From UHGV virus genome UHGV-2044750: a stretch of 27,057 nucleotides of DNA; one strand, written 5' to 3'. Position 1 is the first letter of the stretch; every line of letters begins with the position of its first letter. A program made the position numbers and the translations under genes. The stretch comes from a virus. The notes below the pieces were generated by a model, which was not told where the DNA came from, did no database searches, and was given only the letters and a program-made list of their open reading frames with translations. Positions 2,702 to 15,084 of this stretch are shown here, piece by piece.

Positions 2702-2797
2702 AAAAAGCTTGCTTTTTTACGCAGAAACAGCTTGAATTCCTGTAAGCTTCGCAAAGCTGTATCGCGAGGCGAAATGCAAGTTTTTTCGCACAAGGAA

Positions 2798-2819
2798 GCC
2801 ACCGGAAGGTGGTTTTTTT
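2798..2819 (+). terminator. Rho-independent terminator downstream of Q (candidate tR')
   Basis: Stem CCACC / GGTGG with GGAA loop followed by a 7-T run. Confidence 0.5.
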
Positions 2820-2942
2820 GTGTCCGTAATATACAGCAGCGCAATAAATTCGCTGGTGGTTATTAATACCGTTCTTTCAGGTTGCTGGCTTTTTCGACAA
2901 GAGTTATTGGTGTGTCACGTTAACCGGAAAAGGGAAAAAGAC

Positions 2943-3140
2943 ATGCTGAAACAGCAGGATATGACAGAAACCGCCAGAGTGGTGTTTAATGAATTAAGCG
3001 TTACCGACCCGGCGACAGTCGGGGAGATTGCGCAGAATACTTACCTTTCACGCGAACGCTGCCAGTTAATACTGACCCAGCTGGTTATGGCGGGTCTGGC
3101 AGACTATCAGTTTGGTTGTTACAGACGCCTTCAGTCCTGA
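2943..3140 (+). CDS. Small winged-helix protein (65 aa), PapI/FaeA-like
   Basis: ATG 2943 with AGGGA SD 7 nt upstream; the segment TVGEIAQNTYLSRERCQLILTQLVMAGLA resembles the PapI/FaeA helix-turn-helix pattern. The fold assignment is a pattern-based inference. Confidence 0.45.
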   Translation: MLKQQDMTETARVVFNELSVTDPATVGEIAQNTYLSRERCQLILTQLVMAGLADYQFGCYRRLQS

Positions 3141-3290: not shown

Positions 3291-4340
3291 ATGCTTAATA
3301 CTGTAAAAATATCCAGTTGTGAGTTAATCAACGCCGACTGCCTGGAATTTATGCGGTCGTTACCCGAAAATTCTGTTGACCTGATAGTCACGGACCCGCC
3401 GTACTTCAAAGTGAAACCCGAGGGCTGGGATAACCAGTGGGCGGGTGATGAAGATTACCTGAAGTGGCTGGACCAGTGTCTTGCGCAGTTCTGGCGGGTG
3501 CTGAAACCTGCCGGAAGTCTTTACCTGTTCTGTGGCCATCGTCTGGCATCTGACACCGAAATCATGATGCGTGAGCGGTTTAACGTGCTGAACCATATCA
3601 TCTGGGCAAAGCCGTCCGGACGCTGGAACGGGTGCAACAAGGAAAGCCTGCGGGCGTATTTCCCCGCCACAGAGCGCATTCTGTTCGCAGAGCATTATCA
3701 GGGGCCGTATCGTCCGAAAGATGCCGGGTATGAGGCGAAGGGTAGGGCACTGAAACAGCATGTGATGGCCCCGCTGATTGCTTACTTTCGTGATGCGCGC
3801 GCTGTCCTGGGGATAACGGCAAAACAGATTGCAGATGCCACAGGAAAGAAAAACATGGTGTCGCACTGGTTCAGTGCCGGTCAGTGGCAGCTGCCGAACG
3901 AAAGCGATTATCTGAAATTACAGGCACTGTTTGCCCGGGTGGCAGAAGAGAAGCATCAGCGGGGTGAACTGGAAAAGCCCCACCACCAGCTGGTGGATAC
4001 GTATGCCTCTCTGAACCGACAGTATGCGGAGCTGCAGAGTGAATATAAGCATCTGCGGCGGTATTTTGGTGTGACGGCGCAGGTGCCGTACACGGATGTG
4101 TGGACACATAAACCGGTGCAGTTCTATCCCGGGAAACATCCGTGCGAAAAACCGGCAGAAATGCTGCAGCAGATAATCAGCGCAAGCAGTCGTCCGGGTG
4201 ACCTGGTTGCAGATTTTTTTATGGGCTCAGGTTCAACGGTAAAAGCGGCACTGGCGCTCGGGCGTCGTGCAATTGGCGTTGAGCTGGAGACTGAACGTTT
4301 TGAGCAGACAGTCAGGGAAGTTCAGGATTTAATCGTTTGA
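3291..4340 (+). CDS. DNA methyltransferase, beta-class (N6-adenine or N4-cytosine), orphan (no adjacent restriction gene)
   Basis: DPPY catalytic motif near the N-terminus (LIVTDPPYF) and AdoMet-binding motif near the C-terminus (DLVADFFMGSGST), i.e. beta-class motif order; 349 aa. Confidence 0.9.
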   Translation: MLNTVKISSCELINADCLEFMRSLPENSVDLIVTDPPYFKVKPEGWDNQWAGDEDYLKWLDQCLAQFWRVLKPAGSLYLFCGHRLASDTEIMMRERFNVLNHIIWAKPSGRWNGCNKESLRAYFPATERILFAEHYQGPYRPKDAGYEAKGRALKQHVMAPLIAYFRDARAVLGITAKQIADATGKKNMVSHWFSAGQWQLPNESDYLKLQALFARVAEEKHQRGELEKPHHQLVDTYASLNRQYAELQSEYKHLRRYFGVTAQVPYTDVWTHKPVQFYPGKHPCEKPAEMLQQIISASSRPGDLVADFFMGSGSTVKAALALGRRAIGVELETERFEQTVREVQDLIV

Positions 4341-4389: not shown

Positions 4390-4465
4390 GGCCCTTTAGC
4401 TCAGTGGTGAGAGCGAGCGACTCATAATCGCCAGGTCGCTGGTTCAAATCCAGCAAGGGCCACCA
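4390..4465 (+). tRNA. ileZ: tRNA-Ile (anticodon CAU, lysidine-type AUA reader)
   Basis: Cloverleaf folded by hand: 7-bp acceptor stem GGCCCTT/AAGGGCC, anticodon loop CTCATAA, T-loop TTCAAAT, 3' CCA encoded; closely resembles E. coli tRNA-Ile2. Symbol from the Stx-phage ileZ-argN-argO trio. Confidence 0.85.
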
Positions 4466-4472
4466 TCACATA

Positions 4473-4549
4473 CCGCCATTAGCTCATCAGGAAAGAGCGC
4501 CAGCTTTCGAAGCTGGTTGCGCGGAGTTCGGGTCCCCGAAGGCGGTCCA
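4473..4549 (+). tRNA. argN: tRNA-Arg (anticodon UCG) with one mismatch each in acceptor and T stems
   Basis: Anticodon stem CCAGC/GCTGG with loop TTTCGAA; acceptor CCGCCAT/AAGGCGG has an A-A mispair; T-stem has an A-C mispair; CCA encoded. Symbol is tentative, by order in the trio. Confidence 0.65.
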
Positions 4550-4562
4550 TTATCTGTATCCT

Positions 4563-4639
4563 GCGTTGTTAGCTCAGCCGGACAGAGCAATTGCCTTCTA
4601 AGCAATCGGTCACTGGTTCGAATCCAGTACAACGCGCCA
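4563..4639 (+). tRNA. argO: tRNA-Arg (anticodon UCU, reads AGA)
   Basis: Perfect acceptor stem GCGTTGT/ACAACGC, anticodon loop CTTCTAA, T-loop TTCGAAT, CCA encoded. Symbol is tentative, by order in the trio. Confidence 0.85.
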
Positions 4640-4930: not shown

Positions 4931-5266
4931 TTATGGACTTTGTTGTTTTAGTCCATAAGGACATATTTGCAGAGTGCAACGGTTATTAAAGCATTCATTC
5001 AATACGTTATCTGTATTTGTAGGGCATTCCTGGCTGTTTTTGATTAAATTCCAGAATGTTTTATTGAATGGTACTACGTTGTAAATGGTTACAGGTAGCA
5101 CTTTGTTATTGAGCATGATACCTGTGTGAGTCAGTGTAAATATACTTTCAGGAGGTAAGAAAGCATCCGATTGATACCAGATTATCAATTTTATTTTACT
5201 CCATATGACTGAAAAAGATATTCCGCATGATGGCTGGATAACTGTATCAATCACAATCCACTTCAT
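4931..5266 (-). CDS. Hypothetical protein (111 aa), AT-rich orphan ORF at the stx-equivalent locus
   Basis: Minus-strand ORF with AAGGAAA SD about 5-7 nt upstream of ATG; stop codon lies inside an 11-bp perfect inverted repeat (4929-4960); low GC relative to flanks; no family recognised. Confidence 0.5.
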
Positions 5267-5526
5267 TTAGTTTCCTTGTTTATGCCTTGCTGGTGATGTT
5301 CTGAAAAGTATAAATGATATTTTTGATTGTAAACCATAGAGCAGAATTATTTTTCTGATGTTGTTTATTGTTTATTTAAATGCAGGGTGGTTTATATCTC
5401 GTCTTGTAGTTTATCCATGCATATCTGCTTGATGATGAGGTTTTTATTTAAGGTATGGTTTTGTGTTTTTTCTGTATTACATGTCAGGTATTTTAAAGAA
5501 TTATTTTTCAGATGGTGGAAAGAACC

Positions 5527-7377
5527 ATGGCATTTAAACACTATGATGTTGTCAGGGCGGCGTCGCCGTCAGATCTTGCGGAAAAGCTGACACATAAACT
5601 GAAAGAAGGCTGGCAGCCGTTTGGTAGTCCGGTGGCCATAACCCCTTATACCCTGATGCAGGCGATTGCAGCAGAAGGTGATGTGGTCGTCAGTGGTGCA
5701 ACTGAGCCAGAGTGGTACTACGTCATCGTACTGGCCGGGCAATCCAATGCCATGGCTTATGGTGAAGGGCTTCCGCTTCCGGATTCATACGATGCGCCCC
5801 ATCCGCGCATTAAGCAACTGGCCCGTCGTAACACAGTGACTCCCGGTGGTGAAGTATGCGTATTTAACGACATCATTCCTGCTGACCATTGTCTGCATGA
5901 TGTTCAGGATATGAGTACGATTAACCATCCCCGGGCTGACCTGAGCAAAGGGCAGTACGGCTGTGTCGGACAGGGCTTACATATTGCCAAAAAACTGCTT
6001 CCGTATATCCCTAATAATGCGGGGATCCTGCTGGTACCATGCTGTCGTGGTGGTTCGGCATTCACCCAGGGCACGGAGGGGACATTCAGCGAGTCCACGG
6101 GGGCCAGTCAGGATTCGGCTCGCTGGGGAGTGGGTAAGCCGTTATATCAGGATCTGCTTTTCCGCACGAAGGCAGCATTGCAGAAAAACCCGAAAAACGT
6201 TTTGCTGGCGATATGCTGGATGCAGGGGGAATTCGATATGACGAATGCCAGTTACGCCCAGCAGCCAGCAGCATTTCTTGCAATGGTACAGCAGTTCCGT
6301 GCTGACTTTGCCGGGCTGGCGGCGCAGTGTCACGGTGGAAGTCCGGCATCAGTCCCCTGGATTTGTGGCGACACGACATACGCGTGGAAACAAGAACACG
6401 GTACGCAATATGAAGTGGTATATGGTGCATATAAAGGTAAAGAATCCCAGCAGATTTATTTTGTTCCCTTTATGACCGATGGTAGCGGAGTTAATACACC
6501 GACAAACAACCCGTCAGAAGATCCTGATATTGCCGGGTCTGGTTATTACGGTTCGGCATCCCGAACGAACAAAAACTGGGTATCATCAAATCGCCCGACG
6601 CATTTCAGCTCATGGGCGCGTCGTGGCATTATTCCCGATCGTATGGCAACTGCTATTCTGAACGTAGCCGGTCGCACCTTAGCCTTCATTAGTGGTAAGG
6701 CACCGGAAATCAAACCCTCGCCCGGCGGCGACACGCCATCGGGGCCGTCTGAAGATGCATCCGTACGCACAATCTCCCTGTTGCCGACAGCCGGAGATGC
6801 TGCTGCGCAGGGCTGGAGCATTAAGAATGGCGGAATTCAGTTGTCAGATGGTGTATTTAAGATCACCAAGCAGAGCAATAAAACCTGGTCCCTGATGCAT
6901 CCGGTGGATGACGCAATTACCCTGCTGACACAGGGCGGCAGACTGACCTGTAAGTTCCGCCTCTCAGGCGCACTGACCAACAATCAGTTCGGGCTGGGGA
7001 TTTATCTGTATACGGACGCTCCCGTTCCTGATGATGTGGCGATGACGGGTACTGGTAATCCGTTCCTGATGTCTTACTTCACTCAGACCACTGACGGCAG
7101 AGTGAATCTGATGCATCACAGGAAAGCCGGAAACACGAAGCTGGGGGAGTTCGGCGATTACGGTAACGACTGGCAGACGCTGGAGCTGGTGTTCACCGCC
7201 GGCAGTGCCACGGTTACTCCGAAACTGAATGGAGTGGCTGGCCCGGCATTCCAGGTTATAAAAGACAGTCTGACACTGGGACTGAATGCGCTGACGCTGA
7301 CGGATGTTACAAAAAGTGCAGCGTATGGCGTTGAGATAGAAAGTCTGGTGCTGGAGATAAATGCACCGGCAGCATAA
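5527..7377 (+). CDS. nanS: Prophage sialate O-acetylesterase, NanS-p type (DUF1737 N-domain plus SGNH/SASA esterase domain)
   Basis: N-terminus MAFKHYDVVRAASPSDLAEKL (DUF1737-like) and esterase block LAGQSNAMAYGEG (GQSN motif); about 616 aa; sits between the tRNA cluster and the lysis genes as nanS-p does in Stx-type prophages. The upstream in-frame ATG 5512 lacks an SD. Confidence 0.85.
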   Translation: MAFKHYDVVRAASPSDLAEKLTHKLKEGWQPFGSPVAITPYTLMQAIAAEGDVVVSGATEPEWYYVIVLAGQSNAMAYGEGLPLPDSYDAPHPRIKQLARRNTVTPGGEVCVFNDIIPADHCLHDVQDMSTINHPRADLSKGQYGCVGQGLHIAKKLLPYIPNNAGILLVPCCRGGSAFTQGTEGTFSESTGASQDSARWGVGKPLYQDLLFRTKAALQKNPKNVLLAICWMQGEFDMTNASYAQQPAAFLAMVQQFRADFAGLAAQCHGGSPASVPWICGDTTYAWKQEHGTQYEVVYGAYKGKESQQIYFVPFMTDGSGVNTPTNNPSEDPDIAGSGYYGSASRTNKNWVSSNRPTHFSSWARRGIIPDRMATAILNVAGRTLAFISGKAPEIKPSPGGDTPSGPSEDASVRTISLLPTAGDAAAQGWSIKNGGIQLSDGVFKITKQSNKTWSLMHPVDDAITLLTQGGRLTCKFRLSGALTNNQFGLGIYLYTDAPVPDDVAMTGTGNPFLMSYFTQTTDGRVNLMHHRKAGNTKLGEFGDYGNDWQTLELVFTAGSATVTPKLNGVAGPAFQVIKDSLTLGLNALTLTDVTKSAAYGVEIESLVLEINAPAA

Positions 7378-7877: not shown

Positions 7878-8377
7878 TGCCTCCATCATTACGAANNNNN
7901 NNNNNNNNNNNNNNNNNNNNNNNNNNNGCTGTTGCCATAGCGTCTGTGCTCATCACTGGTCCGAGTGGTGACGATGGCCTGGAAGGTGTCAGCTACATAC
8001 CATACGAAGATATCGTTGGCGTATGGACTGTATGTCACGGACACACCGGAAAAGACATCATGCCCGGTAAAACGTATACCGAAGCAGAATGCAAAGCCCT
8101 CCTGAATAAAGACCTTGCCACGGTCGCCAGACAAATAAACCCGTACATCAACGTCGATATACCGGAAACAACGCGCGGCGCTCTTTACTCGTTCGTTTAC
8201 AACGTGGGCGCTGGCAATTTCAGAACATCGACGCTTCTTCGCAAAATAAACCAGGGCGATATCAAAGGCGCATGTGATCAGCTACGGCGCTGGACATACG
8301 CTGGCGGTAAGCAATGGAAAGGGCTGATGACTCGCCGTGAGATTGAGCGTGAAGTCTGTTTGTGGGGGCAACAATGA
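7877..8377 (+). CDS. R: SAR endolysin (T4-lysozyme-like muramidase, R21 type); N-terminal SAR region partly masked by an N-run
   Basis: MPPSLR...[14 protein letters not shown] signal-anchor-release N-terminus and lysozyme core ([11 protein letters not shown]..., YNVGAGNF); 32 N at 7896-7927 are in frame. Confidence 0.85.
7896..7927. other. Run of 32 N (unresolved or masked bases) inside the endolysin gene
   Basis: Literal n characters in the sequence. Confidence 1.
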
Positions 8378-8810
8378 GCAGAGTAACCGCGATTATCTAC
8401 GTTCTGGTCATCTGCCTCATCGTCTGCCTTTCATGGGCTGTTAATCATTACCGTGATAACGCCATCGCCTACAAAGAGCAGCGCGATAAAGCCACATCCA
8501 TCATCGCTGATATGCAGAAGCGGCAACGTGATGTAGCAGAACTTGACGCCAGATACACAAAGGAGCTTGCTGATGCTAATGCGACTATCGAAAGTCTCCG
8601 TGCTGATGTTTCTGCTGGGCGTAAGCGCCTGCAAGTCGCCGCCACCTGTGCAAAGTCNNNNNNNNNNNNNNNNNNATGGGCAATGGAGAAACCCCAGGAC
8701 TTACAGCAGATGCTGAACTCAATTATTACCGTCTCCGAAGTGGAATCGACAGGATAACCGCGCAGGTTAACTACTTGCAGGAGTACATTAGGACGCAATG
8801 CCTTCGATGA
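8374..8810 (+). CDS. Rz: Rz i-spanin (inner membrane spanin); reading frame is broken across an N-run
   Basis: N-terminus [39 protein letters not shown] is Rz-like up to the N-run; after it the Rz C-terminus ([29 protein letters not shown], stop 8808-8810) continues in a different frame, so the N-run length is not the true length. Confidence 0.75.
8573..8757 (+). CDS. Rz1: Rz1 o-spanin (outer membrane lipoprotein) embedded in Rz in an alternative frame; interrupted by the N-run
   Basis: AAGGAG SD 8 nt upstream of ATG 8573; signal peptide [20 protein letters not shown] with lipobox, then a proline-rich stretch (KSPPPV); after the N-run the frame ending at 8757 has an Rz1-like tail ([13 protein letters not shown]). 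Confidence 0.6.
8658..8675. other. Run of 18 N (unresolved or masked bases) inside Rz/Rz1
   Basis: Literal n characters; both Rz and Rz1 change frame across it. Confidence 1.
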
Positions 8811-9157: not shown

Positions 9158-9832
9158 GACTTAACTCTCTTAAAAGTTGCTAAACATCGCTCGCAAACAA
9201 GAAAGAAAAGTTCTGTTGCGAGCACTCCACAATTTAAACGCCACACAAGCAGCTATTAGGTGGACGGTTCCAAGATTGCTATCAACTGCCACCCGAATAC
9301 CGTCAAAACTTGACGTCCAACCAAGAATTATTGAGTTGTAAACTCAACGCAATGATCTGGTTGGTATAAATGTGACATATGTCATGAATCGACTAGTTGA
9401 GATAGTCAAGATGGGCTTGCTTGACATCATCACCACAACCGGAGCCAACAATGGCAGATTGCGTTACCCAGATTTGATAAAGGCATTTTAGCCTGACATA
9501 ACTATGCACTGTATCGTCGCCGTATTCCCGCATCAACAGAGACCACAGCCCGAGAGGGAGACTCCTCTGCGCGAGTGTGCGGGGATAATCAAAAACGATA
9601 CACACCGGGGTTTACCGTGTTAACGGAGCGCGGCGTTGTCCCCTCATGGTCGCTGGTCCGGTGCGATGGTGGAAGAAACCGGACGATGTGTTACCTCGCA
9701 AACTCTGTTATGTCATGTGTCTGATTTGTGATTTAAGTCGGATAATTGTCATTGCCATTAAGCAGAGGATTGATGACCGACAGGGCTGCATTGTTAGAAT
9801 AAGACTTATTCTTATCTATGCCGGGAATAAAA

Positions 9833-10159
9833 ATGAAAAGAAATCTTCCGTTAATTATTTTGTTGTCTTCTTTGGTTATGGGCTGTACGCAACATAAAAC
9901 AGATATGCCTCGACAGTTGGTTAAGGCATTACCACAATATCCGGCCTATGCCGCGGCAAATTATATAAAGGGACGGGTTGATGTGAAGTTTGATATTGGT
10001 GCTGATGGTACTGTCACCCGAATTGAGTTTATCCGTTCAGAGCCGCACCATCTGTTTGATGAGCAGGTTGTAAAGGCGATGGCAAAATGGCGATTTGAGA
10101 AGGACAAGCCGCGTAAAGGCGTGAAGAAAACATTTATCTTTAGTCCTTCAGCACCCTGA
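9833..10159 (+). CDS. Lipoprotein with TonB C-terminal-like domain (108 aa)
   Basis: Signal peptide MKRNLPLIILLSSLVMGC with lipobox LVMGC (Thr at +2); the mature part aligns by eye to the E. coli TonB C-terminal domain (YP..A....I.G.V.VKFD...DG.V......S.P...F...V..AM..WR.E..KP). ATG 9818 is an alternative start. Confidence 0.75.
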   Translation: MKRNLPLIILLSSLVMGCTQHKTDMPRQLVKALPQYPAYAAANYIKGRVDVKFDIGADGTVTRIEFIRSEPHHLFDEQVVKAMAKWRFEKDKPRKGVKKTFIFSPSAP

Positions 10160-10669
10160 TTATTTTATCAGAAGTTAATTATCACTCTGTTGCTATTCAG
10201 TACATCCCTGCAGGGTAAAGTCTTGTTTCGCCGGATATGAAGATGAAATATTGTTAGAAGACAGTAGCTACCGGTTCCTGTAACCGAACGTTCATTTCTC
10301 GTTATTTTTCATGCTGGCCGGGCGCAGGTGCTTTGCATCTGTTGCCAGCCTTCTCCTGCAGGCTTCAATAACCCATGCCGAAAAATTACCCGATCCCTTA
10401 CGTTCAAGGGCAATATGGATTTGATTAATCATCTGGTTTGGGAAGCTTTATTTTTTGATGACATTGTGTTTTTCCGTGTTCAGTGCTGCTGATTTGTATT
10501 GTCTTAAGATGTCTTTACGTTAAGTTGACACAGATCAATTAATGCATGACTTGGACAAAATTGATTATTTGTCGTGGTTTTATGGTGTACGTGGGATGTG
10601 TGATGGTATTTATATAAATGATAATTATTATCATTTATTGGGTCCTTTCCGGCGATCCGGCAGGCTACG

Positions 10670-10681
10670 GGGCGGCGACCT
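10670..10681. other. cosN: 12-nt cohesive-end sequence GGGCGGCGACCT (lambda-type)
   Basis: Exact match to the lambda cohesive end; the flanks ...TTTCCGGCGATCCGGCAGGCTACG | and | CGCGGGTTTTCGCTATTTATGAAAATTTTCCGG are close to my recollection of the lambda genome ends. Confidence 0.85.
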
Positions 10682-10721
10682 CGCGGGTTTTCGCTATTTA
10701 TGAAAATTTTCCGGGGAAAAT

Positions 10722-10830
10722 CATGTCGGTACTTCTCGAACATAACTATTTGTTTTTTCTAATATCGAATCCGTAAAAGGTCCGACATGAAAACGCCTAA
10801 AAAAGTCATTTTCGGGCACTTTCATGTCGG
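10722..10830. repeat. Candidate cosB R-site repeats: three copies of a CATGTCGG core (10722-10729 direct, 10782-10789 inverted, 10823-10830 direct)
   Basis: Repeats lie between cosN and the Nu1 start, where lambda has its R3/R2/R1 sites, but with a different sequence; an AT-rich spacer between copies 1 and 2 could hold an IHF site. Confidence 0.4.
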
Positions 10831-10857
10831 CCCCTGTATTTATTGTGAGACTGTTTC

Positions 10858-11377
10858 ATGAAGGTTAATAAAAAGAAACTTGCCGAAATTTTCAACGTGG
10901 ATCCGCGAACGATTGAACGCTGGCAGTCTCAGGGACTCCCTTGTGTCTCCGGAGGTGGTAAGGGCGTTGAATCTGTATTTGATACCGCCATGGCAATTCA
11001 GTGGTATGCGCAGAGGGAAGCTGATATCGAAAATGAAAAACTCCGTAAAGAGGTTGAGGATTACAGGGCTGCCAGTGAGGCAGATCTCCAGCCTGGGACT
11101 ATTGAGTACGAACGCCATCGACTTACGCGTGCGCAGGCCGACGCACAGGAGCTGAAGAATGCCAGAGACTCCGCAGAGGTGGTGGAAACCGCATTCTGTA
11201 CTTTCGTGCTGTCACGGATCGCAGGTGAAATTGCCAGTATTCTTGACGGGATCCCTCTCTCGGTACAGCGGCGTTTTCCGGAACTGGAAAACCGACATGT
11301 TGATTTCCTGAAACGGGATATCATCAAAGCCATGAACAAAGCAGCCGCGCTGGATGAACTGATACCGGGGTTGCTGA

Positions 11378-11403
<26 letters not shown>
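10858..11403 (+). CDS. Nu1: Terminase small subunit Nu1 (N-terminal DNA-binding domain diverged from lambda, C-terminal two-thirds lambda-identical)
   Basis: 181 aa; from about residue 75 ([57 protein letters not shown]...) it matches lambda Nu1 as I recall it; the first ~75 aa are clearly related but diverged. Confidence 0.95.

Positions 11404-15084
<3,681 letters not shown>

Follow-up and report, generated by a model that had tools for sequence, protein, structure and literature searches.

Within the stretch of viral DNA analyzed here (UHGV virus genome UHGV-2044750; 27,057 nucleotides, hereafter the window), a lambdoid Escherichia coli prophage has its cos site and its terminase genes. From left to right the region holds cosQ, cosN, a cosB interval with three repeats and an IHF-like site, the gene for the small terminase subunit (TerS; Nu1/gp1) and the gene for the large subunit (TerL; Table 1). 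TerS is a member of the Pfam family PF07471 (Phage_Nu1) over the complete profile (positions 1-164/164; E = 6.9e-91, 302.6 bits versus a cutoff of 30), and its N-terminal part has the PDB relatives 1j9i and 6hn7.

Table 1. Features and mosaic segments of the cos-terminase region, in window coordinates.
Feature	Coordinates	Strand	Sequence or comparison
cosQ (GGGTCCT), packaging-termination subsite	10640-10646	+	identical 7-mer in lambda, phage 21 and all comparators
cosN nicking site	10665-10686	.	exact lambda/21 cohesive-end sequence
lambda-type cosN-cosB segment (I2 region)	10682-10714	+	10687, 10693, 10711 and 10713 all lambda-type
cosB R3, 21-type, TerS binding site (by homology)	10719-10734	+	AATCATGTCGGTACTT; aligns to annotated R3 of phage 21
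I1, IHF-like site between R3 and R2	10743-10755	-	AAACAAATAGTTA vs WATCAANNNNTTR, 1 mismatch
cosB R2, 21-type, inverted	10777-10792	-	AAGGTCCGACATGAAA; identical to annotated phage 21 R2 (OL657228 107-122)
cosB R1, 21-type	10820-10836	+	TTTCATGTCGGCCCCTG vs phage 21 R1 TTTCATGTCGGGCCTTG (OL657228 150-166)
TerS (Nu1/gp1) codons 1-72: winged-HTH DNA-binding domain, predicted 21 specificity group, and short transition	10858-11073	+	181/196 nt and 58/64 aa identical to 21 gp1
TerS codons 73-181: lambda-type part for oligomerisation and TerL binding	11074-11403	+	311/322 nt identical to lambda Nu1
TerL, lambda gpA type	11378-13303	+	633/641 aa (99%) identical to lambda gpA; 67% to phage 21 gp2
Alignment segment, lambda type	10670-10714		lambda 45/45; phage 21 41/45
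Alignment segment (cosB), 21 type	10715-10854		lambda 70/142; phage 21 112/141
Alignment segment (5' of TerS gene), 21 type	10855-11050		lambda 119/196; phage 21 181/196
Alignment segment, transition	11051-11076		lambda 16/26; phage 21 13/26
Alignment segment, lambda type	11077-11398		lambda 311/322; phage 21 192/330 (58%)

The cosQ element, whose role as a termination subsite is described in PMC4669245, is located 30 nt to the left of the nick, which is the same distance as in lambda, phage 21 and every comparator. The 12-nt cohesive end GGGCGGCGACCT occupies 10670-10681. There are no insertions or deletions between cos bp 1 and R3 when the window is aligned with phage 21 or lambda, and this distance of 54 bp is invariant in 91 of 91 contigs among the IMG/VR matches listed. 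The flank on the left side of cosN (10657-10669) reads CCGGCAGGCTACG, while lambda, phage 21 and the other comparators have CCGACAGGTTACG or a similar sequence. Its C at 10665 (GGCTACG rather than GGTTACG) is rare, being found in 5 of 91 related contigs among the IMG/VR matches listed. The record of phage IdasGreatGrand carries a 'hypothetical protein' CDS that runs across the cos site (2794-3072 in that record, corresponding to about 10498-10776 of the window). The same frame is split into shorter ORFs in the window, and the CDS is most likely a spurious call over cosQ, cosN and R3.

The window was aligned with lambda, phage 21 and IdasGreatGrand and scored at the sites where lambda and phage 21 differ. 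What each part is, and where recombination joined the parts, is read directly from the sequence. The left junction falls at 10713/10715, from which point the informative sites are 21-type, and the right junction falls near 11074, at codon 73 of TerS. An initial annotation of this DNA had placed the junctions at 10713 and near residue 75, no more than a few bases or residues away. It had also described cosN and some 45 bp downstream as near-identical to lambda, the N terminus of Nu1 as diverged from lambda (residues 1-64 in our comparison) and cosB as lacking the R-site sequence of lambda, all of which the alignment bears out (Table 1). Its view that Nu1 is lambda-identical from about residue 75 stands in part: the protein is lambda-type from about residue 73, but it is near-identical rather than identical, with two amino acid differences across residues 74-181 (I132L and D181G).

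When 10705-11085 was compared with phage records by BLAST, phage 21 (X02501, M81255 and OL657228) was 86.4% identical over 358 bp. Lambda is about 79.7% identical over the full 10640-11400, a value that averages across the mosaic. Judged by its sequence, the 21-type module in the window is a diverged sister lineage of phage 21. The transitional stretch at 11051-11076 (protein EVEDYRAAS) matches neither lambda nor phage 21 and is nearer to PhiR5_1 and to the prophage of strain PRO_A-1474. These two have further cosB/TerS variants; in PhiR5_1 the R-like cores are CATGTCAG / GACATC / CATGTCGT and the helix is IRTIDRWQTQ. Variants of the PhiR5_1 and PRO_A type may represent other packaging specificities.

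The initial annotation had noted three repeats in cosB in direct, inverted and direct orientation, and a motif scan of the window recovers them as CATGTCGG at 10722-10729 (+), 10782-10789 (-) and 10823-10830 (+). A 9-bp core, TCATGTCGG, is common to all three of these upstream copies, with cores at 10721(+), 10782(-) and 10822(+). R3, I1, R2 and R1 are annotated in two independent phage 21 records, and alignment transfers them onto the three repeats and the IHF-like site of the window. By this homology, the repeats are the R3, R2 and R1 terminase-binding sites of phage 21, which have long been known. The tripartite cosB of the phage-21 specificity group has the order R3-I1-R2-R1 and an inverted R2 between directly oriented R3 and R1, and the window shows this arrangement. 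Neither R sites with the CGTTTCC... core nor the helix IRTIQNWQEQ, which mark lambda specificity, are found in the cosB and TerS of the window. On the strength of the alignment to the annotated phage 21 records, the idea of a novel cosB type was rejected.

The individual sites agree closely with their phage 21 equivalents. R3 differs from that of phage 21 (OL657228 50-65) by a single G54A change, which leaves the core at bp 55-63 identical, and A at bp 54 is the base carried by phage 21's own R2 and R1. In the alignment, R3 bp 56 (10725) and bp 59 (10728) are both G as in phage 21, whereas lambda has T56 and C59. The two differences in R1 both fall outside the core. I1 is the sole match to the IHF consensus (one mismatch) in 10660-10870, and it coincides with the annotated I1 of phage 21 (OL657228 74-86). 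One extra base pair is present between I1 and R2 in the window compared with phage 21.

The N-terminal domain of TerS is likewise of the 21 type. Its recognition helix (residues 16-26) is identical to that of phage 21 gp1 and includes E20 and S24, where lambda has Q20 and E24. The specificity determinants identified in published work are R3 bp 56 and bp 59 together with TerS residues 20 and 24 (PMC4669245), and all four (G56, G59, E20 and S24) are 21-type in the window. Six differences from gp1 occur within residues 1-64 (K7R, V30A, G32K, G34S, V37I and A55T, with the window residue first). Several of these lie in or beside the wing, which reads SGGGKGVES in the window versus SKGSKGIES in phage 21; Lys35, a minor-groove contact in the wing (PMC9026076), is kept. 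TerS's C-terminal half and the whole of TerL are both lambda-type, and the lambda-gpA-type TerL agrees with the lambda-type TerS C terminus.

Membership of the phage-21 specificity group would entail packaging by 21-specific but not by lambda-specific terminase, with more than 1000-fold discrimination. The alignments point very strongly to a packaging-initiation module of phage-21 specificity that resides within an otherwise lambda-type packaging and head region. The packaging-specificity swap of cosB and the Nu1 DNA-binding domain that had been proposed matches the alignments. The novelty implied for it does not survive, since the incoming module is the classic one of phage 21, with annotated R3, R2 and R1 and an identical recognition helix. 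Known mosaicism of the phage-21 type was the outcome that the initial annotation itself had named as counting against its reading, and alignment to the lambda and phage 21 cos-Nu1 regions gave this outcome. Because the module is of the known phage-21 type, albeit a diverged sister allele, it is a case of known lambdoid mosaicism whose sole residual novelty is a possible subtle difference in the specificity or affinity of the window-type sublineage.

A mechanism for this chimera can be proposed if binding, bending and specificity are inferred from what has been published on lambda, phage 21 and hybrids of the two. An IHF bend between R3 and R2 allows a TerS dimer to dock across the bend and position TerL to nick cosN (PMC9026076). 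According to PMC9026076, which cites Frackman et al. 1985, a lambda-21 hybrid with a chimeric TerS gave the domain map in which the 21 N-terminal half binds cosB-21 and the lambda C-terminal half binds lambda TerL. In the window, IHF would bend the DNA at I1, as in lambda and phage 21, and a dimer of the TerS winged-HTH domain would dock on R3 and the inverted R2 across this bend with the assistance of R1. Lambda-type TerL (gpA) would be held by the C-terminal, lambda-type part of the chimeric TerS and, placed in this way, would nick cosN at a distance of 54 bp to initiate packaging. Such a chimeric terminase would package 21-specific rather than lambda-specific DNA. The chimera is self-consistent because the DNA-binding domain was inherited with its R sites and TerL was kept together with the part of TerS that binds it, and 21 packaging specificity is expected on the same grounds.

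The window shares with phage 21 (M81255, X02501 and OL657228) the order, orientation and spacing of R3, I1, R2 and R1, the R core TCATGTCGG / CCGACATGA, the cosN-to-R3 distance, the recognition helix with E20 and S24, and 58 of 64 N-terminal residues. It differs from phage 21 in that the module has 86% DNA identity (cosB 79%, with changes mostly in spacers), R3 bp 54 is A rather than G, and G32 and G34 in the wing replace K32 and S34. The 45 bp proximal to cosN, the C-terminal 60% of TerS and TerL are moreover lambda-type in the window. Lambda cosB/gpNu1, of lambda specificity, and N15/Monarch, of a third specificity, resemble the window in overall cos architecture and in their Phage_Nu1 family membership (PMC4669245), but their R sites and recognition helices are different; in lambda, R3 is CGTTTCCG with T56 and C59, and the helix is IRTIQNWQEQ.

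The closest engineered counterpart is the lambda-21 hybrid hy51. As described in PMC4669245 and PMC9026076, this chimera of a 21 N-terminal half and a lambda C-terminal half (Frackman, Siegele and Feiss 1985) yields viable phage with the specificity of phage 21, and it is still in use as a "21-specific helper" (PMC4669245). In the construct as described there, cosB-21 and the 5' part of gene 1 are joined to the 3' part of Nu1 and to lambda gpA, just as they are in the window. However, hy51 is a laboratory construct, whereas the window is a natural recombinant: its 21-type part derives from a sister lineage that has diverged, and the crossover near codon 73 is accompanied by the stretch at 11051-11076 that resembles a third lineage (PhiR5_1 / PRO_A type).

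The chimera and its junctions recur in the isolated phage IdasGreatGrand (PP925829), in E. coli O157:H7 prophages (for example DEC4E and ATCC 43890) and in the pig isolate DCE7 (NZ_CP090611), which are 98.8%, about 97.9% and 100% identical to the window over 10640-11400, respectively. The window is nevertheless not the DCE7 chromosome: an ungapped comparison at a fixed offset with that locus gave 7,626 mismatches in 27,057 positions, and upstream of cos the best match reached only 94.7% identity, so that another genome is its source. The presence of the arrangement in an isolated phage suggests that it is functional. These records have CDS annotation only ('terminase small subunit') with the cos subsites unmarked. 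Among 5426 complete E. coli genomes, 541 (about 10%) have a place that covers at least 80% of 10640-11400; this coverage requires the chimera. E. coli prophages commonly carry this natural lambda-21 TerS/cosB mosaic.

In IMG/VR, scanning with a pattern (TGTCGG...CCGACATGA...TCATGTCGG) found the R3-R2-R1 architecture in at least 119 contigs, a result that answers the suggestion that conservation of the repeats be sought in related sequences. Among the IMG/VR matches listed, 95 contigs with a full TerS frame were classified: 51 are 21-type throughout TerS, 38 have the chimera of the window (window-type N terminus, lambda-type C terminus), and 6 combine the window-type N-terminal domain and cosB with a 21-type TerS C terminus. 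The last group is a plausible candidate for the parental lineage of the lambda-type chimera. Between the window and phage 21, 5 of 62 positions in annotated sites have changed versus 24 of 79 positions in spacers (Fisher p = 0.0014), and this deficit of changes in the sites points to purifying selection on them.

These observations have little significance beyond correct annotation, although they do reveal that the laboratory lambda-21 chimera of 1985 has a widespread natural counterpart that includes O157:H7 prophages. It would be possible to mark the cos subsites in the records of these prophages. Assignment to the 21 rather than the lambda specificity type also predicts which helper phages, cosmids and cos-carrying PICIs would be packageable by the terminase.

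It is improbable that the window-type module instead constitutes a distinct third sub-specificity that cross-reacts incompletely with phage 21. Its DNA identity to phage 21 is 86%, and the IMG/VR matches listed fall into two sublineages that pair wing type with R3 type, one with R3 TCATGTCGG and the window-type wing and the other with R3 TCGTGTCGG and the wing CASKGSKGIESV. The GGG wing in place of KGS, A at R3 bp 54 and the extra base pair between I1 and R2 may also bring about a subtle shift in affinity or specificity. This pairing of wing and R3 types is nevertheless what simple shared ancestry would produce, and A at bp 54 already occurs in phage 21's R2 and R1. The recognition helix is identical in 95 of 95 contigs among the matches listed, and R3 bp 55-63, the determinants at bp 56, bp 59 and residues 20 and 24, and Lys35 of the wing are all kept (PMC4669245, PMC9026076). 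Even a subtle difference is argued against by the identity of the recognition helix and R cores. We see only a slim chance that the window-type sublineage is a functionally shifted 21 variant with, for example, stronger R3 binding or less dependence on IHF. Such a shift, if true, could help to explain why the sublineage has come to sit on lambda-type head modules in about 10% of E. coli genomes.

Still less probable than a shifted specificity is that a decaying prophage has left this cos region as a non-functional relic, with its repeats kept by recent descent only. The window is a chromosomal prophage, and E. coli harbors many cryptic lambdoid remnants with Nu1-like genes (nohA and nohD). Against decay of this region, the frames of TerS, TerL, the portal and the downstream head genes are open at full length, the annotated sites are significantly better conserved than the spacers across diverged lineages, and the same region occurs in a plaque-isolated phage. 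A functional module of phage-21 specificity remains the preferred reading, and other parts of the prophage in the window could be defective.

A chance clustering of the three CATGTCGG copies, without a role, can be set aside: four matches to this 8-mer in 27 kb are unremarkable alone (4 of 100 shuffles reach four), but none of 1500 simulations of the window under a first-order Markov model gave three copies in 120 bp, their positions and orientations are those of the annotated phage 21 R boxes, and the arrangement is kept in at least 119 independent contigs.

The fourth copy of CATGTCGG is located at 11292-11299 (-), inside the lambda-type part of the TerS gene. It superficially resembles the rR2 site of N15, which sits inside the N15 TerS gene (PMC4669245). 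A role as a distal R site of this kind was rejected because the copy is surrounded by lambda-type sequence and has no equivalent in the aligned phage 21 sequence, and its occurrence is probably due to chance. A full-text literature search for the literal string CATGTCGG returned unrelated primer sequences only.

Several other features of the window were recorded. Downstream of an ORF for a DNA methyltransferase (3291-4340) is a cluster of three tRNA genes (4390-4639, +; Met-like CAT, Arg TCG and Arg TCT). Next come two ORFs, at 4931-5266 (-) and 5512-7377 (+), whose counterparts in related annotated prophages are IraM and a SASA-family carbohydrate esterase. Neither the ORF list of the window nor the annotations of related prophages showed an stx gene. 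We take this layout of tRNA, methyltransferase, IraM and esterase genes to be typical of Stx-phage late regions. Two runs of N interrupt the lysis-gene region (7896-7927, 32 bases; 8658-8675, 18 bases) and are presumably masked stretches of the source record. Lambda uses the interval between lysis genes and cos for bor-like morons, and two small cargo genes are found there in the window (9818-10159, +; 10292-10432, -). One of them encodes a predicted lipoprotein of 113 aa that carries a TonB C-terminal domain (PF03544, E = 2.7e-15), and the other encodes a 46-aa DUF3950 protein (PF13132).
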